Positions 25,065 through 47,049 of a stretch of DNA of 64,000 bases are shown here, in pieces; position 1 is the first letter of the stretch; the number at the start of each line of letters is the position of its first letter. The DNA is taken from contig CAZBAS010000007.1 in the NCBI GenBank assembly GCA_964490395.1, positions 7,208-71,207 on the forward strand, in the 5' to 3' direction. The position numbers were made by a program, and so were the translations under genes. Under the pieces are notes generated by a model, which was not told the origin of the DNA, searched no databases, and saw only the letters and a list, made by a program, of their open reading frames with translations. Source of the DNA: an uncultured Candidatus Saccharibacteria bacterium. GTDB taxonomy: Bacteria; Patescibacteriota; Doudnabacteria; UBA920.

Positions 25065-25076
25065 GCGTTCTAAAAG

Positions 25077-27910: not shown

Positions 27911-27966
27911 CCCATGTCCTTAAAGGACTCCGGTTAAATTGGCAATTCACAGGAAGCTAGAATAGT

Positions 27967-29279: not shown

Positions 29280-29309
29280 TTGACAAATACCGAAATAAAT
29301 GATATAATG
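29280..29309 (+). promoter_or_regulatory. Near-consensus sigma-70 promoter (TTGACA-N18-TATAAT) driving the 29512-32141 operon through a ~200-nt leader
   Basis: TTGACA lies at 29280-29285 and TATAAT at 29304-29309. The leader contains a long-range inverted repeat, GGCATGGCCTTTTTAA ... TTAAAAGGCCATGCG. Confidence 0.6.
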
Positions 29310-29511
29310 TTTTCACAGTACATTGACAACTGAGCTGGAAGTGGCAGGCATGGCCTTTTTAAGCCAAAGAGTGAAACACTATTTTCTCTGGTTTTAAAAG
29401 GCCATGCGGGCCGATACTTGGGAGTACGCACGCGCGGACTCCTAAATTCTTTGCTTCTTGTGACCGCATGGCCACGGAAGTTTAACTTGCAACTCAACCT
29501 GTGGAGGGTAT

Positions 29512-31077: not shown

Positions 31078-31094
31078 GATAAGGAGAGCAAATC

Positions 31095-32141
31095 GTGAGA
31101 AACAGTAGACGTAGTAAACGCAGTGGAAAAGGTAATGGGCGATTGGTGTTACAAATCATCGCTGCGATCATGGGTTTATTGATCGTGGTTGGTGGTATCG
31201 GCTACATCGCTTATCGTCAAATCAAGAGCCATACTGATTATAAAGTTGCCAGTGACGAACAGATGATTGCCCGGGATGCACTCAGTGATGAACATCCCAC
31301 GATCCCATCTTTCTTCACTAAGCCTCTCGTCAAAAAGTTGTATCAAGGCGAAGGGTTTAAGGTGACCTTTGTAGTCAAACATGATCCAAATAATGGCTAT
31401 AAAGACTCAGAGGAAGTCTTTGAAATCCAACCCTGGGAGAAATACCAGGAAACGTTTGTCCGGGTTCGGAGGAACCAGGTGGACGAACAGATTAAGAAGT
31501 TTCCGGAGTTTGTTGAACGCTTTAACGAAGACCGGCCCCGAACCATCCAACTCTACCTCTGTGTCGACGACACAGAAGGGATCAGTACCGGCTTGAAGAA
31601 GCAGGTGACTGAAGAAGTTAAGAGTTGGGATATCGCGGCAAAACTGGCCAAGGGACACACGGTTGAAGTGATTGCGTGGCCACTTAGTGACACGGAATTC
31701 ACTCATAACCAGAAAGTAGTCCTGAAGCCAGACACTGACGATGTCGAGACGAAGCTGAAACCGCTATATACGTTTTTGTTCGGTGAAAAACCGGGCGACG
31801 TACAAGCGACAGCGACGTCCGACATTGCCGGCGGCATTAAGCGAATTGCCAGCGTAGCAGCGGAACATCCAGACCGTCAGTTTCTTTTTTTCGGCGACAG
31901 TCTTCAGAACCACAACGGCGTGCATTTTTACGGCGCTGAGGGAATGAAGATGCTTGAAGAGAAGAATTGGCCAAGTTTAGACAAAACGTTGTTTGACGAC
32001 AAGCTTCCCGCCCTTAAGGATGCCAAAATTGATTGGTTTCCACCACAGGTGGCGGCGAGCGAATCGGCATTGGTTCGTAAATCTTTGACGTATTGGGAAC
32101 ACGTCTTCGCCAAGGCCGGCGCAAAGGCCAAGATTCACTGA
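31095..32141 (+). CDS. Orphan protein with an N-terminal signal-anchor TM helix and a ~310-aa extracytoplasmic domain
   Basis: A 348-aa product starting 18 bp after the upstream gene (operonic) and followed by a terminator. Confidence 0.55.
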   Translation: MRNSRRSKRSGKGNGRLVLQIIAAIMGLLIVVGGIGYIAYRQIKSHTDYKVASDEQMIARDALSDEHPTIPSFFTKPLVKKLYQGEGFKVTFVVKHDPNNGYKDSEEVFEIQPWEKYQETFVRVRRNQVDEQIKKFPEFVERFNEDRPRTIQLYLCVDDTEGISTGLKKQVTEEVKSWDIAAKLAKGHTVEVIAWPLSDTEFTHNQKVVLKPDTDDVETKLKPLYTFLFGEKPGDVQATATSDIAGGIKRIASVAAEHPDRQFLFFGDSLQNHNGVHFYGAEGMKMLEEKNWPSLDKTLFDDKLPALKDAKIDWFPPQVAASESALVRKSLTYWEHVFAKAGAKAKIH

Positions 32142-32146
32142 TAGCA

Positions 32147-32211
32147 AGCGGCGGTAGTTGCAGAAGAGAAATTAAACACTCTTCTTGCGACTACTGCCGC
32201 TGTTTTTTTAT
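32147..32211 (+). terminator. Rho-independent terminator closing the 29512-32141 operon
   Basis: A long imperfect stem AGCGGCGGTAGTTGCAGAAGAG / CTCTTCTTGCGACTACTGCCGCT, followed by GTTTTTTTA. Confidence 0.65.
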
Positions 32212-32261
32212 TTGATAATGTATTTAAAAGCAGCCATGTTATATGGCTGCTTTAAAGTAAA

Positions 32262-35200
32262 TTATTTGAATATTTCTTCTTTTATGCGTTTAGCACGAGG
32301 GGATAGTCTACTTATTTGATTCACAAAGTCATCCAGGAAGGCCATATCTCCCTTGCCGGCATCCTTGGCCTGCTTGAGTGCTCTCAGCGCTGGTTCGTAC
32401 TCTTGATCGGATAGCTGCTTTAACATAACACCCTGTTCAGTTTTGCTTCCAACTACTTCTTTGCGATGCAGGCTTTGTGCGTTAGTAAGGACAGCTGTTT
32501 GTATGCCAGTGAACTCTCGGGGTGTTGGAAGGCGTCGCAAGGTTTGCTCTACTGTTTCATTTATTGGTAGTGGAACTTTCAGCGTATCCGGTTGGCGTAG
32601 GGGTTCGAGGCTAGCACGTTTTGTTTCCGTGTCTATGACAACTGTTTTAATGGCTTTGAGCCTGTCTGAGTAGTCCGTAAGTAGGAGTACTGCTTCGTCC
32701 ATCTCGTCTTCATTTTGTTCTAGGAACCGAGCATCTACTTCGCGTCCTTGAGTGGTAATGCGTAGTGTAAGGTCTGGTCGTATAGATGCCCTAAGCTCGC
32801 CATCCCATTTTTCAAATAGGTTTTCCGCCGGTGGCTTTACTTCTGGTGCAGCTGTCTGCTTAAGTGGTTCTAGTTCTTTTTCTATTTCTGCGCGAGAAGT
32901 GAGCTTGCCAGTGGGCACCCATAGTTCTGCTTTCCCAACGTCTGGGTCTAAATCCAAGCCAGTTTCTTTAGAGCCTACAACGAATACGACTTCAGTCACA
33001 CCGTTTAACAGTCTGGCGTTTTGCGCAACAATTAGTAGGTTTGCTTTTATAATTATTTCATCATTTACCGTCTGTTGCCCCACATCTGGTATGCCCAAAT
33101 TGCCAAATGATAGTTTCGGTAAACCGGGAATTTTGCCCCACTCGGCTAAAGCGCCTGCTTCTATTTGTGCAGCCTTTTCCTTTACCCCCATTTCTACTTC
33201 TTTTGTAAACGGGACCTCAACTATCTTAGCATCTGTTAGTTTGTAGTCAGTAGGGTTTTGGAAAATAACAATTTTGTTTACTCCGCCAGCGGTTTGGGCA
33301 AACTTCTCATATGGTGGTTGTAGGGGGATGTTATTTGTATATGCGTCTCCCTGTTTCCAGGTTTCCTGTGTTATAGACACACCTTTACCGTTGTTACGGT
33401 CCGGTCCCATGGGCATAGTCGTAAAAGCCTGCTCAGCTATCTTACGTATGAACTCAGGGTGCTCGTTCAGGTATTTGCTCAACTCTTCGTACGTACTTTT
33501 GTTCACGATAACTTCCGTGAAGAGCTCCTGCCCACCACGTGTACTGTAGTCTTGATAGGCGTGTTCGTTCTGCGCACCTGGAGCTGTTACAAAATAACCA
33601 ATACGGTATGCTACTTCTGCTCCTGCTTTTTGTTTATTATATTGGCTTAAAGGAGTGTTGCCCGCTACTTTTTCCAGTGTGATAAATTCATGCAGGCTTT
33701 TATCGTTGGCCGCTAGTTCGCGCAGTGGACTTACATATGCGATGGAGGGATAGCGCTTGGCATCTGCCCTATTTTCTCCGAATGTTCCCACGAACCCAGC
33801 CGAACCTTCGGGGTGATAGTGCTGGGGTAAGCTGGTATACACTAAGTTAGCCGCGTTTTCAGGCTTCGCGAGGAGCTCAAGCAGTCTCTGCTCTTTTGCT
33901 TCTTTGGTCTCAGCCTGTTCTGCTGCTGCCACTGCTGGTTGCTTGGCTTCCGGTGTCGTTGTATTTCCAGCTCCAAACACAGTATCCAAGTCTGCAGCAG
34001 TGATCTCTCGAGTTGCGGGGATAAATAGTGTACTCGCAAGACGAATAACAGAGGTTTCTTCAAAGTCTATGTTTATTGTGGAAATGGTGCTTATTTCTTT
34101 TCTGCCGCCCAGCTGACCAAGGTTTGCTTCTATAGTTGCAACATTGAGCGCGACTTGTGTGTAGTTATATTGATTTTTATTAGGGGTAGGATCACCCACT
34201 TTTTTATTTGCAATATATTCTTGGTATCCTTGTCCAAACGCCCACACTATATCTATTCCCGGGCGCGCCTGTTTCCATGTTTGCGTTATGCGGCCAGCAG
34301 CTGCCATGCCCACTCCGCTTTCCCGCATAAAATCTGGTATGGCATGTTCGGCCGCAGATTGGGCTGTCTCTGGTGGTTTCGATGCGGGAGGTACTGCTTG
34401 GTGTTTGGTAGGCGTTGATTGTGTGGTTGCCTTAGGAGAAGCTCCAGATATGATTTGCTCAAGAGCTTGTTCCTCAATGGCGTTTCTACAGGGGACAACG
34501 AGTGTATCTCCTTCTTCATGCAATGTTGCTCGCTCTTGCAGATCTAACTGAACCAGTCTGTACTTGCCTAGACCTGCTTTATTCTTTACAAGTAAGCCCA
34601 CGTTTATATCTATATCGCTTTCATGTTCAGCGACTAGCGCTAAATTATATACTCGCTCGTTTGGTAGTTTGCCTGCCGTAGCCTTGGCTGTTAACTCCGC
34701 ATATCCAGTAGTGTCATATTGCGTTTTAAGAGCGGCTGGCATGGTTTCAGTTTTCCATAACTCCACTACCCTTGAAACAATCATAGTTCCTTTGCCCGCC
34801 TCAGTAAGGTATTCGGTTACTTCTTTTTCGGGTGCGATATTTTTTTTACTAACTGGTTTGCTGGAGGGGGTGATTTTACTGCTCTTCTTTTTTGGTGCAG
34901 TCCCTTCTAACTCGGTGAGTATTTCTTCAGCTCGTTGTCTGCCGTTTTCATTTAGGCTTACCCGGTATATGAGGGCCTCGTTGGACGGTACTCTTTTCCA
35001 TCCCCATACCCTCCCCCAAGATTCACGGTTTTGTTCATCTATCCACTTCAAAAATTCCGCGCTGCTATTCCCCGGTTGCACTTCACGGTTCGCTCTGTCG
35101 TTCATTATATTTTCTGCCGCCCACATTGTTCTTTGGGGCTTAGGCATGCCTTCTACATCATATGGTTTTGCCAGGAGTGGGTTCCATTCAGGACGAGCTG

Positions 35201-35306
35201 CTTCCGTTTCGAGCTTGCTTTGTCTTCGGGTCTGTGGTGGTTTTTCGGGTTGTTGGTCTCTTTCTGGTTGCGCGGTAGGGTACCAATCGGCGCCTCTTCT
35301 TATCAT
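32262..35306 (-). CDS. Large (1014 aa) hydrophilic orphan protein with no TM helix, no signal peptide and no recognisable catalytic motif
   Basis: A single uninterrupted ORF with core-like AT-rich codon usage. It contains a Lys/Glu/Thr-rich linker (residues ~280-330) and a Pro-rich N-terminus. Confidence 0.6.
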   Translation of the reverse strand: MIRRGADWYPTAQPERDQQPEKPPQTRRQSKLETEAARPEWNPLLAKPYDVEGMPKPQRTMWAAENIMNDRANREVQPGNSSAEFLKWIDEQNRESWGRVWGWKRVPSNEALIYRVSLNENGRQRAEEILTELEGTAPKKKSSKITPSSKPVSKKNIAPEKEVTEYLTEAGKGTMIVSRVVELWKTETMPAALKTQYDTTGYAELTAKATAGKLPNERVYNLALVAEHESDIDINVGLLVKNKAGLGKYRLVQLDLQERATLHEEGDTLVVPCRNAIEEQALEQIISGASPKATTQSTPTKHQAVPPASKPPETAQSAAEHAIPDFMRESGVGMAAAGRITQTWKQARPGIDIVWAFGQGYQEYIANKKVGDPTPNKNQYNYTQVALNVATIEANLGQLGGRKEISTISTINIDFEETSVIRLASTLFIPATREITAADLDTVFGAGNTTTPEAKQPAVAAAEQAETKEAKEQRLLELLAKPENAANLVYTSLPQHYHPEGSAGFVGTFGENRADAKRYPSIAYVSPLRELAANDKSLHEFITLEKVAGNTPLSQYNKQKAGAEVAYRIGYFVTAPGAQNEHAYQDYSTRGGQELFTEVIVNKSTYEELSKYLNEHPEFIRKIAEQAFTTMPMGPDRNNGKGVSITQETWKQGDAYTNNIPLQPPYEKFAQTAGGVNKIVIFQNPTDYKLTDAKIVEVPFTKEVEMGVKEKAAQIEAGALAEWGKIPGLPKLSFGNLGIPDVGQQTVNDEIIIKANLLIVAQNARLLNGVTEVVFVVGSKETGLDLDPDVGKAELWVPTGKLTSRAEIEKELEPLKQTAAPEVKPPAENLFEKWDGELRASIRPDLTLRITTQGREVDARFLEQNEDEMDEAVLLLTDYSDRLKAIKTVVIDTETKRASLEPLRQPDTLKVPLPINETVEQTLRRLPTPREFTGIQTAVLTNAQSLHRKEVVGSKTEQGVMLKQLSDQEYEPALRALKQAKDAGKGDMAFLDDFVNQISRLSPRAKRIKEEIFK

Positions 35307-35381
35307 ATAAGTATCAAATTATTCACTAAAATCATTATAGCGGTTTGGAGGTGTTTGAACAAAATGTACCCCGATACCCTT

Positions 35382-37013
35382 TTAGAGGCCAACTTTGTAA
35401 ATTTTAAGCTCAGCGTTTTGATATATATTTTTTAAATAGTCGCGTTCTTCAAAAGCAGCGCTGGACCATGAAGAGACTTCGCTATCTATAATAAGGTAAT
35501 CTATGCCATTCATTTTGCAGAAAGTTTTGAGGGGATCGCTCTGGTTTGGCTCCGTGACTAGCACCCTTCTAAGCAACGTGTATTTAGCGTAATAAAATGC
35601 AGTTTGGTCTCCGTGGCCTATATATACTGTTTGTCCGGTTGTACCAGGGATTATATTTCCAAGGTTTGAACCAGTAGCAACTATGCTCCTAGACGGGGTG
35701 TTTGTTTTCAGCCAGTCTAAAGCTTCATGTTCTGAGGAGGGTATATAGTACGGCTGTGTATTTGTTTGGAAGGCCTGTACGTCTTGCCATGCAATACGGA
35801 GATTACCATATGAAAATAATAAAATAATGGCTATGGCAGTTGTGTACCGTAAATATGTGAATCTAATTTTTAAAATTATATCCCACAGTATATATCCAGC
35901 CATTATGGCAAGAGGAATGTGCAGCCCCAGAATTAGCTTTCTTTGGAACGTAATTTGTAGGGGTGCGTATACAAGCATGAGTAGCGCACCTGCCCAAAGA
36001 GCACAAAATAAAATATATTTGTTGCTAGTTTCGTGTTTAATCCAAGCAAAGAAAGCAAAGGGGAGTAGGGGCGCATATGTTTGTATGAGGGGTAAAAGTG
36101 GTGGCGCTGGCCGCGGAGGCTGCATGTTAAACCATAGGCCGAAAGCTTCGTTGTGGCTAATAACGTATCCTTGCCAGAGTATCGCCGGAAGGGTCAACAG
36201 AGTAAGGTGCATGAAATGTTTTATTGTCCCAAGATTTCGGTTGGAAAAGGCTTGGTATACAACGTACAATCCTAGTACGCTAAAGATAGAAATAATGTCA
36301 TATGGATGTACAAGGATAATCGCGTTACACAATAGTGCTTCTATGGCCAATCGTTTCTTAGAAAACGCGGTATCGTTTTTTAGGAATGATGCGTATAGTA
36401 GCAACATGAGTAGCATCGCGCTTATATTTAGCACTGACTCATAGAGCGACAAGAAAGTAACCGCTTCTGTCATCCATGTATCCAGGGAAACGTTTGAATG
36501 GGTGATCCAACCTAGACCAGACGAAGTTGCTACTAGGGCCCAGATAAACCATGATCGAGATGTTGTAAGGACGAACCTTTTTATAAATATATAGAGGGAA
36601 GTAAGAAATGCTGTTCCAAGAAGAATGCGGGCAATATTGTACCAAATAATATTTGGTAAAGATATGATTTTTGCTACAAGGCCTATTACTAAGAAAATAG
36701 GATGAAATAGTCGAGGCCCATTATTCTCCGTTGTATATAGTGGGGCGAATAATATGTGTCCTTGTCTCCCTTGCTCAATCCATGCCAGGTAACTATAAGT
36801 ATCTCCCTGGTTAATGCGGTGAACGCCTGTAAACGATCCAGGGTGTGAACGCATTGCGCCATATATATAGGGTAAGGAAATTATTACCATGGCTATTAAC
36901 GACGTTGTTACTAGCAAGATCGTACTCCTGTTTTTGGTGTATAGAGATGAGAACATGTGGTGATTATAACAAAAAAGAGCGGGTCCTTTACGCTGAGCTA
37001 TAAATAGCTTCAC
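35382..37013 (-). CDS. Polytopic membrane protein (at least 12 TM helices), possibly a GT-C-like glycosyltransferase, with a C-terminal soluble domain
   Basis: A 543-aa product whose hydrophobic helices span the first ~400 aa, followed by a C-terminal ~100-aa domain. It is not obviously related to the 17564 and 23439 paralogs. Confidence 0.5.
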   Translation of the reverse strand: MKLFIAQRKGPALFCYNHHMFSSLYTKNRSTILLVTTSLIAMVIISLPYIYGAMRSHPGSFTGVHRINQGDTYSYLAWIEQGRQGHILFAPLYTTENNGPRLFHPIFLVIGLVAKIISLPNIIWYNIARILLGTAFLTSLYIFIKRFVLTTSRSWFIWALVATSSGLGWITHSNVSLDTWMTEAVTFLSLYESVLNISAMLLMLLLYASFLKNDTAFSKKRLAIEALLCNAIILVHPYDIISIFSVLGLYVVYQAFSNRNLGTIKHFMHLTLLTLPAILWQGYVISHNEAFGLWFNMQPPRPAPPLLPLIQTYAPLLPFAFFAWIKHETSNKYILFCALWAGALLMLVYAPLQITFQRKLILGLHIPLAIMAGYILWDIILKIRFTYLRYTTAIAIILLFSYGNLRIAWQDVQAFQTNTQPYYIPSSEHEALDWLKTNTPSRSIVATGSNLGNIIPGTTGQTVYIGHGDQTAFYYAKYTLLRRVLVTEPNQSDPLKTFCKMNGIDYLIIDSEVSSWSSAAFEERDYLKNIYQNAELKIYKVGL

Positions 37014-37076
37014 GTAAATTTCTCGCTCTCAGTTTTCCCTCCCTGCTCCTCCTGCAGGGTTGTTTGGTCGCGCACG

Positions 37077-38432
37077 TTATTTGTGCACGATCCGGATTGT
37101 CACATGGAATCCGCCAGAGTTGTTTCCGTCGGAATATCCATGCAGTGATTCAATGATGCGGAGCGTTGGCACGCCCGCCTCTTTGGCCGATTGATTAAAC
37201 CGCGACCCAACAAAGTACCGGCTTGTGTCTTTGTTGGTGCCGATCCACATCTCCAAGCCTCCGATGTGGGCGGTGAATGGGCTGTCTACGCTGGGGTCGC
37301 GGTAGGCTGACCTCTCGCCTTCGGGGCTCACAGGACCGCGGCCAATGTTGGCCGTGCCTGTTGCCTCAATGCTGAGTTCGTCGCCTACTTTAAGCTTCAG
37401 CTCTTCGCCGCTCGCGGTGACCAGCTTGACGCCTTCCGCAACAACGGGGACGTCGGCTGACCATGATCCATCAGCGTTTTTGGTGACTTTGGCTTGTACA
37501 TCTGGAAGCGTGCTGCCACGTCCAGAAGTGGAAGAGGATTCCTTTGTCCAGCTAAACCAGCCATGGCGATAGGCGTACAACCCAGCCAAGACCAGCCCGA
37601 GTAACATTGCCGCTATTACCACGTGGTTTCGCGTCAACTTAAAACTGAACTTCAACCCTTTTCCAGCGCGTTCGCCCATCATGTAGCGGATCAGGAACCT
37701 GGCCGCATACAGGATGATTGCCAAGCCAATGAGGACTCGGAGCCACCAATATGGGTTTGTGTAGTTTGCTGCCCGTTCCCACTCGTCCCAGTGGTATATC
37801 CAACCAAACAACTTGCCGTTGGTTATAGCATCAACCACCAGGAAAATTGTCAGCAGGACCTGGCTGCCCAGCGCCAAGCGTTGCAGTGCCTTTAGCCAGA
37901 AGCCATCCGCTTTGAATGCAATCGCCATTATGCCGGCAATAAGCGAGGCCAAGATGATGACTGCAAACTTCATTGGGTGTTCATGCAGCGGTGTGAGCGC
38001 TGTGATCTCCAAGAGAAGTCCGAAGAGTGCGAACAGGGCGATAAACGTCGTTATGAACGAGTCCCTCTGCTCCACGGTTACCCACGGATCAGATGCCTTT
38101 TGTTCACCCGGCGCGATTTCACGAACGGCGTCCACGCCTGTGCGGAGAGCTTTCTCTGCAGCCGTGAAAAGCGCTGCAAGAAAACCTAACTGCAAGGTCG
38201 CCGCATATGCACCCAGCATGATCATTATTGAAGCGCCAATCATCACGAAGTAACCAAAGCTGTGAGAGTACCAGTCTGAGGCCATCCCTCCCAGATAGAC
38301 GGCAAAAAAGAAAGCCGGCCATCCGTAGAGGAAGATCATGAGGCGGCCAAGGTGGTACTGTAGTTCGCGCTGGGCATCCAGGACTCTTTCCTGTGTCCAA
38401 AAGAAGAAGAATTGTAGGTAGTCTTTCGGCAT
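37077..38432 (-). CDS. Orphan membrane protein (~8 TM helices) with a C-terminal ~170-aa beta-rich extracytoplasmic domain
   Basis: A 451-aa product with GC3-enriched codon usage. It is the last gene of a three-gene minus-strand operon, 40001 to 37077. Confidence 0.5.
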   Translation of the reverse strand: MPKDYLQFFFFWTQERVLDAQRELQYHLGRLMIFLYGWPAFFFAVYLGGMASDWYSHSFGYFVMIGASIMIMLGAYAATLQLGFLAALFTAAEKALRTGVDAVREIAPGEQKASDPWVTVEQRDSFITTFIALFALFGLLLEITALTPLHEHPMKFAVIILASLIAGIMAIAFKADGFWLKALQRLALGSQVLLTIFLVVDAITNGKLFGWIYHWDEWERAANYTNPYWWLRVLIGLAIILYAARFLIRYMMGERAGKGLKFSFKLTRNHVVIAAMLLGLVLAGLYAYRHGWFSWTKESSSTSGRGSTLPDVQAKVTKNADGSWSADVPVVAEGVKLVTASGEELKLKVGDELSIEATGTANIGRGPVSPEGERSAYRDPSVDSPFTAHIGGLEMWIGTNKDTSRYFVGSRFNQSAKEAGVPTLRIIESLHGYSDGNNSGGFHVTIRIVHK

Positions 38433-38441
38433 GTTTCCCCT

Positions 38442-39230
38442 TTAGGACCCTTGAATAAGGGCCCGGATGATGAGCACAATAATTGAGCCGAACCCGATTC
38501 CGAGAACGACCCCCCAGTAGAGGATTCTGAACCACAGCGGCGCTGTGGGCGCAGAGAGCCTCTGGCCAGGAAGTAAGGTTTCGGGTTGTAGGTGGAAGAG
38601 CTGAGCCAGGGTTGGCCGGTTGCGAAGACGATCCAGTTTTGCGGCAATGCGGGCCTCGCGGACCACATTCGCATCGCGGACTGCAGTCTCGCCGAATTCG
38701 CGGACTGCATCCAAGATACGTTCTGACATCGTGAGGTCAGCACAACCGGTACTGGCCAGTAAGGCCAAGCGTTCGGTGTCGTCCTCACAAAGTAGAAGTG
38801 CAGCAATTTCGTCGCTGCGGTGATTTTCGTCGGCGATACGGAAGTGGCGTTTCAGATACTTTTTCCTCATCCGGGTCACGGCTTCATCCGTGCTCGCGAG
38901 AAAGAAAATGGTATCATTTAACCGTGCCACGCCCGCAGGGCCATCAAGGTCCTCATGCAAACGTTCCAGTTGCTTACGCACCTGGCCCAAATCACGCAGA
39001 AACAATGCTCCTTCAGCAGTCATGCCCAATTTATCATCTTGCATGGTCATGATGCGCTGCGCTGCTCGAACATCGCCCTCTTCCAGTTTCTTCTGGGCAG
39101 CACCCACGACGGCTTCAGCGCCTTTGCCTTCCGCAAAGAGTGCATGAACCGCTGTGTTCGCCGTAAATTCGGACATGAAGTGTTTGGCCACGTCCCAGCC
39201 CTCATCAATAATCTTTTGAACTGTCGGCAT
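38442..39230 (-). CDS. Orphan helical protein with a single C-terminal TM helix (tail-anchored topology)
   Basis: A 262-aa product with the C-terminus LWFRILYWGVVLGIGFGSIIVLIIRALIQGS. It ends 9 bp upstream of the next gene. Confidence 0.5.
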   Translation of the reverse strand: MPTVQKIIDEGWDVAKHFMSEFTANTAVHALFAEGKGAEAVVGAAQKKLEEGDVRAAQRIMTMQDDKLGMTAEGALFLRDLGQVRKQLERLHEDLDGPAGVARLNDTIFFLASTDEAVTRMRKKYLKRHFRIADENHRSDEIAALLLCEDDTERLALLASTGCADLTMSERILDAVREFGETAVRDANVVREARIAAKLDRLRNRPTLAQLFHLQPETLLPGQRLSAPTAPLWFRILYWGVVLGIGFGSIIVLIIRALIQGS

Positions 39231-39239
39231 AGCTCTCTC

Positions 39240-40001
39240 CTATGAGTACTTGAGGTCAAGGATGACCGGTTGATCGTTGGGGTGAAGCACAGTAAGCTGT
39301 GTTTCGTTCACCCTAAAGAATTTTAAGCGGATAGTTTCAATGCCCGCTGCTGGTGTAAATTTCCAACTCGCGACCGCGAATTTCTCTTGGGTCGCTGGCG
39401 GGGTTGGTGGTACACGCGTGATGGGTGTGCCGTCGGCTGCCTGCATTACGAACTTGGCCCCACAACTAATTTCGACTTCCTCGGGGTTTTGGTCACCAGC
39501 GGCATTCGCCGTTTTAATGGTGAGTAAGAACCAGGGGTTGCCGCCACTAATTGCGGTTTTGCCAGTAACTGTAACGCGCGACTTCTTGGACGTTGCCACG
39601 CTCACAGTCCCTGCGGGTGCAGGCGGAGCCTTTGGGATTTCGAGCGCTTTCGATGTAACGTTGTCTACGTCCTCCCGCGCGCAGATGTGCGTGAAAGGAG
39701 CGCCAGACAAGTTAACGGTGACAGAACCCCAGCCCCGGTTGTTAGTGCTGATAGTCACTGGAGCATCCGGCGTGGTGCCTTTCGTAAGCTGTATGTCAAA
39801 CGCGTCAGCAGTCTCATCGTTCCCCAGATAGAGTTTGACATTTTTCACGGCAAGCCCTTTATTTCCTTTCCTTGTTTTTATTCTCAAGGTTAATTTAGTG
39901 GGGTCCTTGCCGATAATCTCAAAATCAATCGCCTCTCGGCTCTGCTGGGCCTGTTGACCAGGTTTCTTTCCGTTGGGCTGTTTGCCTTTATCGTCGGCCA
40001 T
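39240..40001 (-). CDS. Orphan protein, predicted beta-sandwich-like, with a Lys/Gln-rich N-terminus
   Basis: A 253-aa product. It is the first gene of the minus-strand operon; an AT-rich promoter region lies upstream at 40002-40600. Confidence 0.5.
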   Translation of the reverse strand: MADDKGKQPNGKKPGQQAQQSREAIDFEIIGKDPTKLTLRIKTRKGNKGLAVKNVKLYLGNDETADAFDIQLTKGTTPDAPVTISTNNRGWGSVTVNLSGAPFTHICAREDVDNVTSKALEIPKAPPAPAGTVSVATSKKSRVTVTGKTAISGGNPWFLLTIKTANAAGDQNPEEVEISCGAKFVMQAADGTPITRVPPTPPATQEKFAVASWKFTPAAGIETIRLKFFRVNETQLTVLHPNDQPVILDLKYS

Positions 40002-40262
40002 AGCTTGCTTCTCCTTTCAAGAGAAATTGTTTACGGTTTACGCAAGCTATGCCAACAGGCATTTGCTGCGCGCTGGTATATGATTTATAACTATTTAGTT
40101 GTAAAAGAGCGCGAAACACGGACAATTGTCCGCTGGTAGGTGGATTAAGAATTATCCTACCAGATATATGGCTTACATAAGCCATAAGTCTCATAGGGCA
40201 ATTCGTGTATTCATTTGAAACAACATTATAGTATATTATTGCAAATATGTCAATATATAGGT

Positions 40263-40300
40263 ATACATAAACTCTGCTTAATTAAGCAGAGTTTATGTAT
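40263..40300. promoter_or_regulatory. 38-bp perfect palindrome (ATACATAAACTCTGCTTAA|TTAAGCAGAGTTTATGTAT) in the divergent region between the orphan operon and the pilin-like array
   Basis: It is exactly self-complementary over 19+19 bp and no U-tract follows. A second 9+9 palindrome, TATGGCTTA-CAT-AAGCCATA, sits at ~40166-40186. Confidence 0.6.
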
Positions 40301-40599
40301 ATTATTGTGTTGGTGTATGCGCCAAAATAGAGCATAAATAAGCCTTGCATAGACTTAGCATTGTATCTTCCTTGTCTTGGTCTGGCTCTGCTCGGCTCAC
40401 TGTTCCGTTTCGACGTGCTATCTATATATAGCCATAAGTATGAACCATTATTTTCACCTCCCAGATTTCATATGGGTCCTACAGAACTAATCCCATATCA
40501 TTTCTACAATTTGTCTTTAAGTTTCGAGAGTCATTTACTGTACGCATGGAATATGTTCTGGTATAATTTTTTTAAAGGCAGTTTACTTTAAGAAACCAA

Positions 40600-41073
40600 A
40601 TGCTTAAAAAAATAAATTGGAAATTTGTTCGGTATCTGCTCGCATCGGTTGTGGTCGCTGTTGCGTTGTATGCTCCTATGGCGCATGCCGCAATAGTTAA
40701 TTGCGGCAATCAAGACGGGGGAGATGCAAAAGATGGGTGTAAGTTTAGTGACCTGTTTACCAGCGCAACAAATTTAATAAATTATTTTTTGAGTGGCGCT
40801 GCTGTTGTGGCGGTAGGTGGAGTAGTATATGGTGGTTTTCTCATGGTTACGTCTGCGGGCAATGCAAGCAAACAGGGTGCTGGTAAGAAAGCAGTTACGA
40901 ATTCGCTCATTGGCCTCGGGGTTATACTTGTGTCGTTTCTGCTCATAAAGAGTGTGTTTGTAATTCTTGGCTTTAAAGGTGGCGCAGATCCTTTGCAGAA
41001 CCCAACGCAATTTATAAATGGCCAGAGTGGAAACTTAATAGACTCTGGTGTGCCGAGCGGCGGAGGGAAATAA
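40600..41073 (+). CDS. Pilin-like array member 1: signal peptide, a short Cys-containing ectodomain, and the C-terminal VirB2/TrbC-like two-helix domain
   Basis: The C-terminus is VVAVGGVVYGGFLMVTSAGNASKQGAGKKAVTNSLIGLGVILVSFLLI (hydrophobic helix, polar loop TSAGN..K.G.K, hydrophobic helix). Confidence 0.6.
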   Translation: MLKKINWKFVRYLLASVVVAVALYAPMAHAAIVNCGNQDGGDAKDGCKFSDLFTSATNLINYFLSGAAVVAVGGVVYGGFLMVTSAGNASKQGAGKKAVTNSLIGLGVILVSFLLIKSVFVILGFKGGADPLQNPTQFINGQSGNLIDSGVPSGGGK

Positions 41074-41115
41074 GTTCGTTAATGCATTTTCTAAAAATAA
41101 ACTAAACAAGCTATC

Positions 41116-41967
41116 ATGACATTTAAAAAATTATCTATTATTAGTAACTCCATAGCCTTGCTCGTAAGCCTTGCTACAGTGGCATCTGTATGGAGCGCAC
41201 CTGCATTTGCCGCTGGGTGTGATCCAGATATATATTTTTCAATTACCGACCCAGTAACTGGCAACATTGTTACGCAAGCTCCTCAAAATGGTAAAGTTAC
41301 GTTTTATGTAAAACTTACTCCGAAGGGTGACTGCTCGACCACGGTAATAAACGATGTAGTAATAAATCAGCGTCTTACCAATGGAATCACCTTTTTGGCA
41401 AATTTTCCTATTTCTGATAAAAACGGATTGCGACGAGGGGTTGTTGAATCTAAATATACCCAGGGCGTAGATGGGATCCTCGACACCACGACGGGTAAGC
41501 CAGTACAAGTTGGTGGGAAGTTGTCGCTTGAAGGGGCCGTCAAATTAGAGGGTGAAGATAAATACCGTAATTCAAGTCCCACGCCACTTGCTGCGGTTGC
41601 TGCTGTTCCTGGCGGAGGTGGTGGAGATGTGAATGCGCCAAACGTAAACACCCCTGGTGGAAACGTAAACACCCCCGGTGGCGATCCTAGTACTGTAGGC
41701 ACTATTGGTACCATCTCAAACCCTATTGGCTATGAGTCTTTGGGTGCGCTTGTGGTGGCCATTATCCGTTTTCTACTTACTATGATTGGTGGTCTTGCCG
41801 TGCTGTTCATTATTATAGGTGCGGTGCGCATGGTTACCTCTCAAGGTAATGAAAAGGCCGTTACTGCTGGTAAGCAAACTGTTACCTGGGCAGTCATAGG
41901 TCTTATTACTGCACTCATGGCGTTCTCGCTCATTAGTTTGGTCCAGAGTTTAATAGGGCGTAAGTAG
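41116..41967 (+). CDS. Pilin-like array member 2: signal peptide, a beta-rich ectodomain with NVNTPGG repeats, and the conserved C-terminal domain
   Basis: The C-terminus is LLTMIGGLAVLFIIIGAVRMVTSQGNEKAVTAGKQTVTWAVIGLITALMAF. Confidence 0.6.
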   Translation: MTFKKLSIISNSIALLVSLATVASVWSAPAFAAGCDPDIYFSITDPVTGNIVTQAPQNGKVTFYVKLTPKGDCSTTVINDVVINQRLTNGITFLANFPISDKNGLRRGVVESKYTQGVDGILDTTTGKPVQVGGKLSLEGAVKLEGEDKYRNSSPTPLAAVAAVPGGGGGDVNAPNVNTPGGNVNTPGGDPSTVGTIGTISNPIGYESLGALVVAIIRFLLTMIGGLAVLFIIIGAVRMVTSQGNEKAVTAGKQTVTWAVIGLITALMAFSLISLVQSLIGRK

Positions 41968-41997
41968 AAGCGACACTAATCAACGAATTTCACACGA

Positions 41998-42744
41998 ATG
42001 ACACGAATAATAAAATTCAACCATACACTACGTGCGTTTCCACTTTTTGTTTTTGTTGCTGGTTTAGTTGTGGCGATGTGGTTTACCGGTACAGCCGTGG
42101 CGCAGACAGGTAATCCGTATGCATGTCCTACCCATCCACAAATTCCGACTGCTACCCGAAACGGTACTTGTGTACAAGCATTACAGTGGTTGCTCAATAG
42201 TAAAATACCAACGCCTGCTCTAGAAGAGAATGGCGACTTTGATACTGCTACGGAAGACAAACTTACGTTGTATCAGAAAGGTGCTGGTCTAAAATGTACC
42301 GACGGTATAGCTGGGCCAGAAACATGGAACTCACTTATTCCCGGTTTGAATCAAACAGGGGGGTGCGCTGGTGGAGGAGCAACCACCACTCCTTCCGCGA
42401 CAAACACAACTACGGGTGGAGTTTCTGCAGGCTGTAGTAAGATAGAGCAAAACTTTACTGAGTTTGGTGGCGGCACACCAGGTCCGCTTGCCAACAATTG
42501 CTATACTCCGGGTGAAGGAGTGAATAAAGTTATCAAAATAGCGTTTACGTTGGTTGGCATACTCACTGTTCTCTTTATAGTCATTGGTGGGTTTAGGTAT
42601 ATGACTTCTGCTGGTGATGAGAAGCGTGCAGGGAGTGGCAAGAAAACAATTCAGTGGGCGCTCATTGGTTTGGTGTTGGTGTTGTTTGCTTATGCGATTG
42701 TTACTATCTCCACACGACTCGCAACTACCAGTCAACTTTTCTAG
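41998..42744 (+). CDS. Pilin-like array member 3: signal peptide, a peptidoglycan-binding (PG_binding_1-like) domain, a Thr/Gly linker, and the conserved C-terminal domain
   Basis: The PGBD-like stretch is VQALQWLLNSKIPTPALEENGDFDTATEDKLTLYQKGAGLKCTDGIAGPETWNSL. The C-terminus is LVGILTVLFIVIGGFRYMTSAGDEKRAGSGKKTIQWALIGLVLVLFAYAIV. Confidence 0.6.
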   Translation: MTRIIKFNHTLRAFPLFVFVAGLVVAMWFTGTAVAQTGNPYACPTHPQIPTATRNGTCVQALQWLLNSKIPTPALEENGDFDTATEDKLTLYQKGAGLKCTDGIAGPETWNSLIPGLNQTGGCAGGGATTTPSATNTTTGGVSAGCSKIEQNFTEFGGGTPGPLANNCYTPGEGVNKVIKIAFTLVGILTVLFIVIGGFRYMTSAGDEKRAGSGKKTIQWALIGLVLVLFAYAIVTISTRLATTSQLF

Positions 42745-42859
42745 CGCGCAAAAAAATTAAAATATTCTACCTCCCTTAAAATGTGATATAATAATTATGT
42801 AAAAATAATCCTCTAGAGTTTAAAGCTCCTAGAATAAAAGGAGAGGGGGTGAAAGTAAA

Positions 42860-43267
42860 TTGAAACAAATGATGAAAAAAATAAATTGGTTGGGCGTTGT
42901 CCCAATAGTCGCAGTTGTAGTATTGATGGGTATCTCCATTATCGCACCAAGCTTTGCTCATGCAAGTCAAATTCCTGATCCAGGTTTGTGCACCAAGGTA
43001 AATGGACTCAACTGTACTAACTACACATTGAATGGTCTTATTATCCGTGTTATCAACTGGATATTGGCTATTACATTGGCAGTAGATGTATTGTTCATGA
43101 TCATTGGTGGTTTCCTGTACATTACTTCTGCAGGTAACGAAGATCGTGCAAAGAAGGGAAGGACTACCGTTATCAATGCTATCATTGGTTTGGTAATTAT
43201 CATCCTCGCATACGTCATTGCAAACGTAGTTTCTAGCTTCTTCTCAACTGAAAACTTCACCGCATAA
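42860..43267 (+). CDS. Pilin-like array member 4 (TTG start), with a short ectodomain
   Basis: It starts at TTG at 42860, preceded by the RBS AGGAGAGGGGGTG. The C-terminus is LAITLAVDVLFMIIGGFLYITSAGNEDRAKKGRTTVINAIIGLVIIILAYVIAN. Confidence 0.6.
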   Translation: MKQMMKKINWLGVVPIVAVVVLMGISIIAPSFAHASQIPDPGLCTKVNGLNCTNYTLNGLIIRVINWILAITLAVDVLFMIIGGFLYITSAGNEDRAKKGRTTVINAIIGLVIIILAYVIANVVSSFFSTENFTA

Positions 43268-43432
43268 ATAAAATTCTCCGTACTGCGTCGTGTTTTTCTA
43301 CTCATTTCTGTGAGCACGGCTGCAGCCACATGACGCAGTGCGGATGAATATATATTGCAAGTTGCAAATTGTAGATTGCATAGGTGTGAACCTTTCAATC
43401 TACAATGTGAAATTTACAATCGGAACCTGCTC

Positions 43433-43843
43433 ATGTTCTATACACCAAAAGTACGCACATTGGTTGCCACGTTTATTCTCTTGGTAACCTTTGTTGTCCC
43501 ACGCGCCCTGTTTGCACAAACAACAGGAACAAACGGAAACGTTCAGGGCGGTTTAAACGAAATCAAAAATCAGTTTAATTCTCAAAGCGAAATAGCGCAG
43601 TCGCAAACGGTAGGAGACCTCATCTTGTCCGTCATTCGAATACTGATTGGTTTGCTCATGGCTATTACTGTACTGTTTATTATTTTAGGTGGGTACCAGT
43701 ACGTAACTTCTGCCGGCAACGAGGAGCAGGCCAAGCGGGGGAGGAGAACACTGACCTACGCAATTATTGGTCTTGTAGTAGTCATTCTTTCTTATGTAAT
43801 AGTAAATACAGTGTCCGGTGCGGTGGACTCTACACAACTCTAA
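43433..43843 (+). CDS. Pilin-like array member 5
   Basis: The likely start is MFYTPKVRT... at 43433; the ORF-track start at 43355 runs through the upstream hairpin and inverted-repeat region. The C-terminus is LLMAITVLFIILGGYQYVTSAGNEEQAKRGRRTLTYAIIGLVVVILSYVIVN. Confidence 0.6.
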   Translation: MFYTPKVRTLVATFILLVTFVVPRALFAQTTGTNGNVQGGLNEIKNQFNSQSEIAQSQTVGDLILSVIRILIGLLMAITVLFIILGGYQYVTSAGNEEQAKRGRRTLTYAIIGLVVVILSYVIVNTVSGAVDSTQL

Positions 43844-43849
43844 AAATGT

Positions 43850-44722
43850 ATGATGAATACGACTTTGTTTAAAAAAATACTTCTATACCTCGGGGTTGCA
43901 GCAATTGGTGTATCTGTAACGTTTGCTTCTACCGCTGCAGCAATTATTGATATGCGGGCAACCGGTATGAGTGGGTGTGACACCAGTCTTACAACATGTA
44001 CTCCGAACAAGGTGCAGCAGGGGCAAATATTAGTAGTACGGGCAACCGGCGTACCCGTGGACTCGCTCGATGCTGTTCGTGTTGCATTTAACTTCGATGT
44101 AGATAATGGTTTAGGTAATGCCCCGTACGATTATAAAACTGATCCTGTAACCGGGGAGACTAGCTTCTTTGTAAAAGTACAGGCTGGAGCTTCGGAGATG
44201 GGTGTGGGTACTCACAAAATTGCTCTTATTGGGCAGGGTATACCTTCGACTGTGGTTGGGTCGCTTACTATTGCAGCTGCAACATCGCCTACAGGTCCGG
44301 TGCCGCCCGGTCCGACCGGCCCTGTCCCGCCAGGGCCAACTGGCCCCGCTCCTGTCACTCCTGTTCAGTCAGATCTGGAGTGTGCTTCACAGGGTCTTGA
44401 AAAAGACACTGCGACTGGTCTGTGTTTGCCTAAGAATCCTTATGCGAGCGCTAGCCCAGATAGCTTGGTAAAAGCAACGAGTGTTGGGGATTTAATCAAA
44501 AAGATTTTAAACATCTTGCTTACCCTTGGCGGAGTAGTCGCGGTACTCTTTATAGTGCTTGGCGGGTATGAGTACATCACTTCGCGCGGTAGTGAAGAGC
44601 GCGCAAAGAGCGGTCGCAAGACTATGACGTATGCCATTATCGGGTTAGTTGCCATACTGTTGGCTTTCATGATGGTAACAGTAATGACAAACTTGTTTAC
44701 GCAAGGGAAGCTGTTTAGTTAG
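43850..44722 (+). CDS. Pilin-like array member 6: signal peptide, a beta-rich ectodomain with PTGPVPPGPTGP collagen-like repeats, and the conserved C-terminal domain
   Basis: The C-terminus is LLTLGGVVAVLFIVLGGYEYITSRGSEERAKSGRKTMTYAIIGLVAILLAFMMV. Confidence 0.6.
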   Translation: MMNTTLFKKILLYLGVAAIGVSVTFASTAAAIIDMRATGMSGCDTSLTTCTPNKVQQGQILVVRATGVPVDSLDAVRVAFNFDVDNGLGNAPYDYKTDPVTGETSFFVKVQAGASEMGVGTHKIALIGQGIPSTVVGSLTIAAATSPTGPVPPGPTGPVPPGPTGPAPVTPVQSDLECASQGLEKDTATGLCLPKNPYASASPDSLVKATSVGDLIKKILNILLTLGGVVAVLFIVLGGYEYITSRGSEERAKSGRKTMTYAIIGLVAILLAFMMVTVMTNLFTQGKLFS

Positions 44723-44766
44723 AAGTCTTAAACAGGTAACAGATACCATGTAACATGGAGCATATA

Positions 44767-44798
44767 AAACATCTCTGCACGCGCAGAGATGTTTTTGT
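44767..44798 (+). terminator. Rho-independent terminator closing the pilin-like array
   Basis: The stem AAAACATCTCTGC/GCAGAGATGTTTT with loop ACGC, followed by a U-tract. Confidence 0.7.
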
Positions 44799-44929
44799 TA
44801 CATGCTGCACGTGCGATGTTTCTTACAATTTGTTAGCTCTGGCTTTAACTGAAGGGACCTGGTAGAATATCCATATTGTTGCCCCTTCGGGGGTTAAATG
44901 AAAAAAGCCTTATATTTGTAAGCGCTTTG

Positions 44930-45016
44930 GCCCAGGTGGTGGAATTGGTATACACGCCAGCCTTAGGAGCTGGTGGGAGAAATCCCGTGGAGGTTCGAGT
45001 CCTCTCCTGGGCACCA
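44930..45016 (+). tRNA. tRNA-Leu (anticodon TAG), type II
   Basis: Acceptor GCCCAGG/CCTGGGC, anticodon stem CCAGC/GCTGG with loop CT-TAG-GA, variable arm GGGA-GAAA-TCCC, T-loop TTCGAGT, discriminator A, and an encoded CCA. Confidence 0.8.
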
Positions 45017-45129
45017 GAAATAGAATTAAGAATATAGAATAATGAATTATGCACAAGATAAAATCGAGTGTTTGATTCCGATTCATAATTCTTAATTCAT
45101 GATTCATAATTCTAGATTTTACATACCCT

Positions 45130-47049
45130 ATGTGGAAAATTACTCGTAACATTATTATCGCGTTGGTTATATTTTTGCTTATCACCGCAGGTATTTCTGC
45201 GCTGTCTGGTGATACAAAAGTAAAGCCAGTCTCAGTAAGCGAAATTGTAAACCTTGCTAACAATGGCAAGGTTCAGTCTGTTGAAGTTACCGAAGACAAG
45301 GTGCTCGCTACCATAAAAGACTCAGACACTAAGCTCTCGGCTACTTTAGGAAAAAATACGGAGTTTGTAACCTTGCTCAAAGACAATGGTATATCTGCCG
45401 ATGGTATTCGCTCTCTGCAAATAGAGTACAAGCAACCCGGGTGGGGAAGCTCCATACTTTCAAATATCTTGCCTATCTTGCTACCGTTTTTGCTTATCTC
45501 TTTGTTCATCTACTTCCTCATGAGGCAAGTGCAAGGGACAAATAACCGTGCTATGTCTTTTGGGCAGAGTAGTGTAAAACTTTCCGATGAACGAAAGAAT
45601 AAAGTTCGTTTTGTTGACGTTGCGGGCGCAAAAGAAGCAAAAGAAGAGCTGAAAGAAGTTGTAGAATTTCTTAGGTTTCCTCAAAAGTTTTTGCAGCTTG
45701 GCGCAAAAATACCAAAAGGCGTGTTGCTTCTTGGTAGTCCTGGAGTTGGCAAAACATTGCTTGCCCGCGCTGTAGCGGGTGAAGCGAATGTGCCTTTTTT
45801 CCATATTTCCGGTAGTGAGTTTGTGGAAATGTTTGTTGGTGTGGGCGCAAGCCGCGTACGAGATTTGTTCCGCAAAGCAAAACGAAACAGCCCATGTATT
45901 GTATTTATAGATGAGATAGATGCAGTAGGGCGTCAGCGGGGCACTGGCCTTGGCGGCGGCCATGACGAGCGCGAACAAACCCTAAACCAAATTTTGGTTG
46001 AGATGGACGGGTTTGAAAACGAAACAAATGTCATAGTCATCGCAGCGACGAACCGGCCAGATGTGCTGGATCCTGCATTGCTGAGACCAGGGCGTTTTGA
46101 CCGCCAAGTAGTGCTCGACTTACCAGATATAAAAGACCGTGAAGAAATACTGAAGGTCCATGCCCGCAATAAGCCGTTGGCAACAGACGTAAACTTACGT
46201 AACATAGCAGAGCGAACTCCCGGGTTTTCCGGCGCAGACTTGGCCAATCTTCTAAATGAAGGTGCCATACTGGCTGCCCGCAGCGAAAAGAAAGATATAG
46301 GTACAAGCGACCTGCGCGAAGCAATTGAAAAGGTTATGCTTGGCCCAAAGCGTGCAAGCCATATACTGAGTACGGCCGAAAAGAAAGTTACTGCATATCA
46401 TGAAGGCGGTCACGCGCTTATAGGCGCAGTGCTTCCCGAAGCGGATCCAGTACATAAAATTACCATCCTTTCCCGTGGTCGCGCAGCAGGGTATACCATG
46501 AAGCTTCCGAGTGAGGAAAAGCATATGCAAACTCGCTCTAGTTTCTTAGACGAAATTGCAGCGCTTCTTGGCGGCTATGCTGCTGAAAAGCTGGTTTTTG
46601 GTGAGTTAACCACAGGTGCTTCAAACGACCTTAAGGTTGCTACCAGCATGGCTCGTAAACTTGTCACTGCATATGGTATGAGCGACGTTTTGGGTCCTAT
46701 CACCTTTGCAGAGCCGAGCGAAACAGTATTTCTAGGTCGCGAACTGGGCGAACATACCAATTACAGTGAAACTGTTGCTACTCAGATAGATGCTGAAATT
46801 AGCCGCATAATGCGCGAACAGCTGGAGCGCGCAACCGAAGTGCTTACTACTCAGCGCAGTTATCTAGATGCTATTGCAACAAAGTTGGTGGCAGAAGAGA
46901 CTTTGGAGCAAGAACAATTCTACGACATTGTAAAAGATATTGTTCCAAAAGATAAAATGGGCCCTACGCTTAATTCTGCTACGCCAATTGTAGAAGAGCC
47001 AGTAGCCGCTGTAGTTGCTCCTGGGCAAACTACAGAAGACGCATCCTAA
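45130..47049 (+). CDS. ftsH: ATP-dependent zinc metalloprotease FtsH
   Basis: It has an N-terminal TM helix and periplasmic domain, AAA Walker [17 protein letters not shown], the SRH motif, and the zinc-binding HEGGHAL (HEXXH). Confidence 0.95.

Follow-up and report, generated by a model that had tools for sequence, protein, structure and literature searches.

Tandem arrays of VirB2-like pilin genes have already been published for Patescibacteria (PMC10633639, PMC12102498, PMC12857230). Quinonero-Coronel et al. (PMC12102498) screened 3,035 Patescibacteria genomes for matches to the profiles PF18895 and PF04956 and reported 441 arrays of 2 to 11 pilin genes in 383 assemblies, with a mean in-array identity of 25%. 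In the same survey, VirB4 was present in 2,417 of the 3,035 assemblies (about 80%) and in 18 of 20 classes, the 1,948 assemblies with both virB4 and a pilin gene had the two close together in only 1,135 cases, and the Patescibacteria VirB4 clade nested within the MPF-FATA class of type IV secretion systems (T4SSs). The part of its Table S1 consulted here includes one genome of class Doudnabacteria, which is VirB4-positive. In Southlakia epibionticum, the one species tested, a six-gene pilin array is essential. Here we analyze a 64-kb stretch of the 81,965-bp Patescibacteria contig CAZBAS010000007.1 (hereafter the window, meaning the whole stretch), in which six consecutive plus-strand open reading frames (ORFs) at 40600-44722, named P1 to P6 in order and separated by spacers of 6 to 165 nt, form an array of this kind. 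It fits the definition of PMC12102498 (2 to 11 genes matching PF18895 or PF04956, in tandem or one gene apart, in Patescibacteria, with low identity), and the locus itself is an instance of a published type of array, not a discovery. Four features appear to be undescribed in published array accounts, namely pilins that bear ectodomains, the exchange of the P6 ectodomain on a near-identical stalk, the conservation of the paralog types, and polyproteins of six modules. We consider it probable that the six genes are the pilin operon of a Patescibacteria-type (monoderm, MPF-FATA-derived) T4SS, used as a heteromeric kit that includes modular pilins.

The six genes and their products, with lengths in amino acids (aa), are as follows.

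40600-41073, plus strand: P1, a 157-aa pilin-like protein with a signal peptide (..AHA/A), a stub with two Cys, the two-helix module, and a C-terminal tail of 35 aa rich in Gly and Pro.
41116-41967, plus strand: P2, a 283-aa modular pilin with a signal peptide, a β-rich ectodomain of ~130 aa with two Cys, a Gly/NVNTPGG linker, and the module.
41998-42744, plus strand: P3, a 248-aa modular pilin with a signal peptide, PG_binding_1, a Thr/Gly linker, a Cys-containing juxtamembrane segment, and the module.
42860-43267, plus strand: P4, a 135-aa plain pilin (132 aa from an alternative ATG at 42869).
43433-43843, plus strand: P5, a plain pilin of 136 aa from the ATG at 43433 used by gene callers (162 aa from the TTG at 43355, where the ORF opens).
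43850-44722, plus strand: P6, a 290-aa modular pilin with a signal peptide, an ectodomain of ~140 aa, a PTGPVPPG linker, a conserved juxtamembrane segment with two Cys, and the module.

All six proteins share one layout, in which a signal peptide is followed by a variable N-terminal region and by the same C-terminal two-helix module. Alignment resolves a block of ~80 residues common to P1 to P6 (a helix, TS.GNE..AK.G+.T, and a second helix) with the pattern ...VLFI.IGG..Y.TS.GNE..AK.G+.T...AIIGL......AY.I.N..., and full-length pairwise identity is 23 to 32%. A hidden Markov model (HMM) of the module, run against every window ORF of 60 aa or more in all six frames, matched P1 to P6 and no others, with P1 scoring 70.6 bits. 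The shared module is not a chance pattern. An initial annotation, made from the sequence before any database search, had described six same-strand genes ending in a common module, and the alignment and the HMM bear this out. The peptidoglycan-binding domain that it named is PG_binding_1 (PF01471) at residues 59-113 of P3 (36.4 bits); its low-complexity repeats are the NVNTPGG repeat of P2, encoded by a 21-bp tandem repeat at 41640-41681, and the PTGPVPPG repeat of P6; and its short Cys-containing stubs are those of P1 and P4. The ectodomains of P2, P3, and P6 span ~130 to 180 aa and make these proteins two to three times as long as a classical pilin. The P2 ectodomain had no family match, the P2 and P6 ectodomains showed no similarity to each other (BLASTP E = 0.09), and phmmer searches of P2 and P6 against the PDB found no match. 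The description of the N-terminal regions as completely different is therefore retained at the level of sequence. An AlphaFold2 model of P3 built from 16 sequences (mean predicted local distance difference test [pLDDT] of 58.5) is too weak for use on its ectodomain.

Family assignment came from PF18895 (T4SS_pilin). P1 to P6 score 28.0, 26.8, 44.6, 39.6, 42.8, and 49.9 bits, all above the gathering cutoff of 26.6 bits, which P1 and P2 barely exceed, and all 71 homologues examined match the same profile. The proposed membership of the module in the T4SS-pilin family is thus confirmed. The family is large, with 108,434 representative clusters at 50% identity (E <= 1e-3). The best NCBIfam match for each of the six, covering the whole module, is NF045849 (Mbov_0395/MMCAP2_0565 pilin-like conjugal transfer protein), at scores of 18.1 to 39.6 bits (39.1 for P3 and 39.6 for P5); all lie below the curated cutoff of 40 bits, and the six proteins are non-members of that family.

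Topology points the same way as the family profile. P1 to P6 carry hydrophobic signal peptides of 28 to 36 aa, of the signal peptidase I (SPase I) type and with an AxA-like site. The number of Cys between signal peptide and module is 2, 2, 6, 2, 0, and 4, even in every case, and the loop between the two helices has a net charge of +1 to +3. Because of the signal peptide, the even Cys counts, and the net-positive loop, the module is predicted to form a hairpin whose ends lie outside the cell and whose loop lies inside, and the N-terminal regions are predicted to face outward, in agreement with the surface display first suggested for them. Such a hairpin orientation is the membrane topology of VirB2, TrbC, and TraA. 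An AlphaFold2 model of P5 (71-sequence alignment, mean pLDDT of 75) contains a helical hairpin, H60-91/H97-133, at a block-mean pLDDT of ~84 to 96. All six proteins have the signal peptide, two hydrophobic helices, and short basic loop of TrbC/VirB2 proteins. The small mature size of such pilins (about 70 to 100 aa, with no extra domain) is seen in P4 and P5 (~100 to 110 aa) and roughly in P1; P2, P3, and P6 do not fit it.

Two other identities were rejected. The hallmarks of type IV pilus (T4P) pilins are a class III signal peptide (a short basic leader cut between G and F/M-x-x-x-E) and a single N-terminal hydrophobic helix; this identity is ruled out by the SPase I-type signal peptides and the C-terminal two-helix module, and no type IV pilin Pfam family was matched. 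Soluble secreted effectors, the old label of the TM7x array, are ruled out by the two transmembrane helices in each protein.

The array was compared with 54 related loci from species-representative genomes (labeled L002 and onwards), all of which are Patescibacteria metagenome-assembled genomes (MAGs) except one labeled Gammaproteobacteria. The nearest named homologues of P3 belong to Candidatus Doudnabacteria, and the window probably comes from an ultrasmall bacterium of that group. Between four and eight tandem module genes occur in 32 of the 54 related loci. L002 to L007 contain one clear orthologue for each window paralog, in the same gene order except that paralogs 1 and 2 are swapped in L003, L004, and L006; 1:1 orthologues of P1 were found in L002-L007, L010-L013, L015, and L023. 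Communities of reciprocal best hits tie the window paralog types to fixed positions in the arrays of Saccharimonadia, where the P4 and P3 types correspond to positions 2 and 3, respectively, and the P5/P6 type to the last ones. As judged from these comparisons, the six paralogs are old, positionally conserved types that predate class-level splits. An eight-gene array in L047 (7678-10605 of the 440-kb contig CAZIMC010000001.1; short pilin modules of about 100 to 148 aa) lies in a MAG labeled Gammaproteobacteria and represents either a mislabeled bin or the presence of the family outside Patescibacteria.

The modules themselves are highly constrained. Against L002, whose FtsH protein is 97% identical and whose DNA is 73 to 84% identical to the window, nonsynonymous divergence (dN) in the modules is 0.03 to 0.06, compared with 0.044 for FtsH and 0.076 for SMC, and the modules are under purifying selection as strong as that acting on these two housekeeping proteins. 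P4 is identical to its L002 orthologue at 135 of 135 residues in surrounding DNA of ~84% identity, and its synonymous divergence (dS) is 0.3 to 0.6 (42860-43267 versus L002 8296-8703), with neighboring genes near or at saturation. The low dS is compatible with strong constraint on codons or RNA in a gene expressed at a high level, or with gene conversion that took place recently between lineages. The P4 module is also the best conserved in the comparisons with L003 to L005. Because of its identity with L002, its low dS, its own extended -10 element, and its strong Shine-Dalgarno sequence, P4 is likely to be the major, highly expressed subunit.

The regions attached to the modules follow another pattern. 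The 201 module proteins of the related loci include 49 in which the module is preceded by 100 aa or more and 26 in which it is followed by 60 aa or more (up to 1,027 aa). The ectodomains are lineage-specific grafts. The fusion of PG_binding_1 with the P3-type module is kept, along with five invariant Cys, in at least 16 proteins whose identity goes as low as 41%, and the P3 ectodomain has a dN of 0.08 against L002; outside its own clade, the P3 type lacks this graft. In P2, dN against L002 is 0.24 for the ectodomain and 0.05 for the module, a roughly fivefold faster rate for the former. P5 orthologues in L003 and L004 carry an ectodomain of ~140 aa that the window P5 does not have, and P1 orthologues in L003, L004, and L006 have a C-terminal extension of ~190 aa.

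P6 and its L002 orthologue share 82 of 83 module residues (dN of 0.03) and have largely retained the juxtamembrane segment with two Cys. In the region before the module, 78 of 201 positions are identical and 102 are gaps, the ectodomain dN is 0.89, and the DNA does not align across most of the ectodomain-coding stretch. One protein in the database, P0263 (88% identical), has the window-type P6 ectodomain, and six others are 80 to 90% identical in the C-terminal part of P6 but have a form of ~378 aa; one of the three such forms that were scanned scored above the IPT/TIG cutoff. The P6 ectodomain has thus been replaced in the manner of a cassette, between close relatives and on a near-identical stalk. 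The idea of a diversifying family that had been attached to the locus survives for these regions, with the P6 ectodomain replaced and some ectodomains strongly diverged, but not for the array as such, which consists of old, ordered paralog types under purifying selection.

Modules also occur fused to one another. A library of 1.84 billion proteins contains single polypeptides with 2 to 17 tandem modules, which are the best-scoring members of the family; examples within P0114-P0262 are P0114 (552 aa, six modules in one uninterrupted chain), P0118 (386 aa), and P0125 (1775 aa). These chains are genuine polyproteins or else whole arrays that have been fused, and because single polypeptides of six modules exist, different modules are suggested to work side by side. 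A different architecture of the same family is found in the Paceibacteria-type loci (L034, L036-L039, L043, L045, L046, L048, L049, L051-L053), each with one protein of ~300 aa that has its module near the N-terminus. Ten of these loci have a conserved C-terminal extension after the module, and in L034, L036, L039, L045, L049, and L051 the gene lies ~3.5 kb upstream of dnaA.

We propose that P1 to P6 would be exported by Sec, cut by signal peptidase I, and held in the membrane as helical hairpins with their ends outside and their positive loop inside, in the VirB2/TrbC topology. The six anciently diverged paralog types would then act together and not as alternatives. A filament or stalk could be built by the plain pilins P1, P4, and P5, of which P4 is probably the major subunit, and the proposed modular pilins P2, P3, and P6 would expose their N-terminal ectodomains on its outer face. 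In P3, the peptidoglycan-binding domain may bind the peptidoglycan of the cell's own wall or that of its host, and P2 and P6 could present fast-evolving, replaceable, adhesin-like β domains on Pro/Gly linkers for recognition of the host surface. The assembly machine (VirB4, VirB6, and others) would be encoded elsewhere in the genome. A more specific version of this model is put forward tentatively, as a possibility that we rate clearly below the pilin operon itself: the array would be a fixed heteromeric kit in which the hairpin stalk carries exchangeable ectodomains (peptidoglycan-binding, IPT/TIG-like, and other β domains), their display on the filament would set host attachment, cassettes would be swapped between relatives, and the six-module polyproteins would be the fused form.

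Several results weigh against a T4SS pilin operon. None of the six proteins reaches the PF04956 (TrbC/VirB2) gathering cutoff of 27.9 bits; P5 scores best (24.8 to 25.6 bits, E ~2e-5), P3 scores 10.5 bits, and P1, P2, P4, and P6 have no match. A 50-sequence profile of the module retrieved no solved pilin from the PDB sequences and returned chance matches to viral fusion proteins (E > 1), and fold searches likewise retrieved no solved pilin, returning generic helical hairpins only. Because the fold searches gave generic hairpins only, the likeness to VirB2 rests on sequence profiles and topology. Of the 71 homologues, 27 also match PF04956 at E <= 1e-3 (best 7e-8), and through them a superfamily-level link to TrbC/VirB2, of moderate strength, remains. 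The TrbC/VirB2 link named at the outset is supported through these homologues, and we would apply the label "VirB2" to the array with moderate confidence. No pilus of these proteins has yet been reported for any Patescibacterium, and reviews call it hypothetical, with PMC12857230 treating it as a possibility only. A domain of 15 to 20 kDa on every subunit would, moreover, be hard to pack on a VirB2-type helix; the long paralogs could be accommodated only as minor or terminal subunits or after processing.

The absence of transport machinery from the surroundings of the array counts on the same side. No sizeable ORF of the window matches the VirB4, VirB6, or VirD4 families, as the initial annotation had stated, and T4SS machinery genes are likewise absent from the ±10 kb around the array in 16 related loci. 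The block immediately upstream (22030-40001) has no T4SS-relevant Pfam match even at E <= 1. The ±10-kb flanks in the 16 loci contain 60 ORFs of 350 aa or more; 56 of these are homologous to window genes, and the other four are shorter than 500 aa. Because the neighbors in these loci are homologues of window genes, the array in this lineage is a stable chromosomal operon at a conserved housekeeping site, unlinked to virB4. The array terminator is followed by a tRNA-Leu gene and then ftsH, and the gene order in related loci is ComM, a 515-aa protein, an NTP-transferase, SBP_bac_1, the array, FtsH, RNase III, and SMC. The remainder of the window is of housekeeping character (RecA, FtsK, ComM, PBP1A, FtsH, RNase III, SMC, S16, TrmD, L19, RNase Y). 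Absence of VirB4 from 64 kb had been read as a sign that the pilin fold was co-opted away from T4SSs. This conclusion is not upheld, because VirB4 is common in Patescibacteria and pilin genes are often distant from it, and the genome of class Doudnabacteria seen in part of Table S1 has VirB4. In the Saccharimonadia loci L019 and L021, a gene of the PrgI/VirB3 family (39 and 49 bits) adjoins the array in divergent orientation, and in L021 there is, in addition, a weak match to TrbL/VirB6 near the array. Walker-A ORFs near arrays in other loci were considered as VirB4 and identified as FtsH, SMC, ComM, DnaA, RecG, and PriA. A tblastn search of P5 against 72,556 plasmids found no match.

A small but real chance remains that the proteins belong to a T4SS that builds no pilus, the hairpins forming a short conduit or ring through membrane and wall and the ectodomains tethering it to peptidoglycan and the host surface. 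Monoderm T4SSs normally lack pili (PMC12102498, PMC12857230), P3 has a peptidoglycan-binding domain, and fused six-module proteins would suit a membrane assembly of fixed stoichiometry better than an open-ended helical polymer. Yet the sequence similarity is to TrbC/VirB2, which form pili, and the long Pro/Gly linkers of P2 and P6 suggest reach beyond the wall. The present data fit such a conduit and a filament alike. Somewhat less probable, in our judgment, is independence from any T4SS, with the hairpin serving purely as a membrane anchor that displays surface domains on the cell envelope and does not polymerize. The generic hairpin fold, the lack of T4SS genes in the window and in the ±10-kb flanks of the array from 16 related loci, and the frequency of attached regions among related-locus members (about a quarter with 100 aa or more ahead of the module and 13% with 60 aa or more behind it) would all be expected of an anchor. 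However, P1, P4, and P5 display essentially nothing, yet their conservation equals or exceeds that of the decorated paralogs, and a mere anchor needs no six conserved paralog types in fixed order. Homologous arrays are also part of T4SS clusters or adjacent to them, where they are essential, and VirB4 is recorded for class Doudnabacteria in the part of Table S1 noted above.

It is improbable, finally, that the paralogs form a repertoire for antigenic or host-range variation, in which they would be interchangeable and one or a few would be expressed at once, as proposed for Bartonella trwL and Anaplasma virB2. Such a role was raised in the discussion of PMC12102498, and the low in-array identity (23 to 32%) and fast evolution of the P2 and P6 ectodomains are consistent with it. 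However, the paralog types are older than class-level splits and have kept their order, their modules are under purifying selection equal to that on housekeeping genes, and only the ectodomains of particular paralogs vary. Tight spacing (6 to 165 nt) with one terminator at the end and the existence of six-module polyproteins likewise speak for joint use. We therefore retain the heteromeric pilin operon of a Patescibacteria-type T4SS as the probable explanation.

Candidate expression signals of this operon are the following.

40559-40567, plus strand: candidate promoter of the array, of the extended -10 type (TGGTATAAT), with the P1 start 32 nt downstream; read from the sequence, with a putative function.
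42784-42792, plus strand: candidate extended -10 promoter (TGATATAAT) in the 115-nt spacer between P3 and P4; likewise putative in function.
44766-44797, plus strand: intrinsic-terminator-like hairpin closing the array, with a 13-bp stem and 4-nt loop (44766-44795) followed by a T-run.

The terminator-like hairpin folds at -20.8 kcal/mol (z of -4.5; none of 200 shuffled sequences folds as well), which substantiates the strong terminator first noted there. The claim that members have their own promoters and ribosome-binding sites holds in part: extended -10 elements precede P1 and P4 and a strong Shine-Dalgarno sequence (AAGGAGAGGGGGTGA) precedes the P4 start, but this is the sole clear one in the array, and a scan for sigma-70 hexamer pairs gave counts at chance level (15 versus 11 ± 3.7). 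The exact extended -10 motif TGNTATAAT occurs nine times in the window, against 2.8 ± 1.8 expected, and its sites (e.g., 9890, 40559, 42784, 51825, and 53214) lie mostly shortly upstream of gene starts. This excess near gene starts suggests that -35-independent promoters may be common in the organism. The 600-bp divergent intergenic region upstream of the array contains a perfect palindrome with 20-bp arms (40260-40303), which could be an operator or a bidirectional terminator, and adjoining it, on the minus strand at 40253..40225, is a 12/12 match to the sigma-70 consensus (TTGACA-17-TATAAT). An Rfam scan of 39900-45200 found tRNA only.

Upstream of the array lies a block of ~18 kb of mostly orphan genes (22030-40001), preceded by an extracellular solute-binding protein (SBP) gene of family SBP_bac_1 (20320-21675). 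The block encodes a 1014-aa protein with no family match, multi-transmembrane proteins of 541 to 543 aa (two) and 451 aa, and PBP1A (25077-27611), and its GC content is 0.48 to 0.53, against 0.42 for the array. Because the SBP gene stands directly upstream of the array in at least nine related loci, the block looks like a lineage-specific insertion between the two; no homologues of the block were found near arrays in other loci. The SBP_bac_1 gene is a conserved same-strand upstream neighbor in many Doudnabacteria-like loci and ends 0 to 50 nt before the first pilin gene in L005, L007, and L013-L016, a placement that may reflect cotranscription or a functional link of the array to uptake. Downstream, in L010 (10575-13796), the FtsH that follows the array is 1073 aa long and has an intein (Intein_splicing and LAGLIDADG) in its AAA domain. 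In the window, 9 kb downstream of the array, a 1270-aa protein (53400-57212) with an F5/8 type C (discoidin)/NedA-like galactose-binding domain is another probable surface-binding protein, already pointed out in the initial annotation.

Patescibacteria account for a large fraction of bacterial diversity, and their way of life is one of attachment to host cells. If their pilin arrays are indeed fixed, specialized sets in which some members carry exchangeable host- or wall-binding domains, concrete experimental targets would follow, namely the identity of the major subunit, the ligands of the ectodomains, and the relation between ectodomain allele and host range. The "modular pilin" idea would also be extended from type IV pili to the pilins of T4SSs, none of which, in our reading of the literature, has been described as modular.

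The closest comparison is with S. epibionticum ML1 (SEML1_0006-0019), the TM7x "Sec-secreted array", and the 441 published arrays, which share with the window PF18895 membership, tandem same-strand arrangement, and location on a Patescibacteria chromosome. The gene number is six in both the window and S. epibionticum, and in-array identity is 23 to 32% here and about 25% in the published arrays. In contrast to the S. epibionticum genes, which lie inside the SEML1_0006-0019 T4SS cluster, the window array is located outside any such cluster, at a tRNA-Leu/ftsH site. The ectodomains (PG_binding_1, two with no family, and IPT/TIG in orthologues) find no mention in the published accounts of Patescibacteria arrays consulted here. 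With the diderm VirB2/TrbC/TraA pilins (PF04956), P1 to P6 have in common the signal peptide, two hydrophobic helices, and short basic loop, but their array has no adjacent VirB3-B11, their organism is monoderm, three of them are longer, and all score below the PF04956 cutoff. The pilin-like proteins of Mycoplasma integrative and conjugative elements described by NF045849 come from an MPF-FATA (Tenericutes) context and are single-copy, with models of ~80 aa, unlike the six-gene array.

Multiple tandem, divergent pilin paralogs are also known from trwL (VirB2) and trwJ (VirB5) of Bartonella Trw and from Anaplasma virB2, where they are thought to widen host-surface binding (PMC12102498). The trwL and virB2 copies are recent, lineage-specific amplifications inside a T4SS locus, whereas the types in the window are ancient, keep their positions, and vary mainly in their grafted ectodomains. 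Conceptually alike are the modular type IV pilins of Streptococcus sanguinis, of which PilB reportedly carries a vWA module and PilC a lectin module. In that monoderm, too, a pilin module is joined to a binding module in adhesive minor subunits (PMC8179133, PMC9934059). The S. sanguinis proteins form type 4 filaments, have class III signal peptides, and bear their graft at the C-terminus; in contrast, the window proteins combine an SPase I-type signal peptide and a VirB2-like hairpin with a graft that is usually N-terminal.

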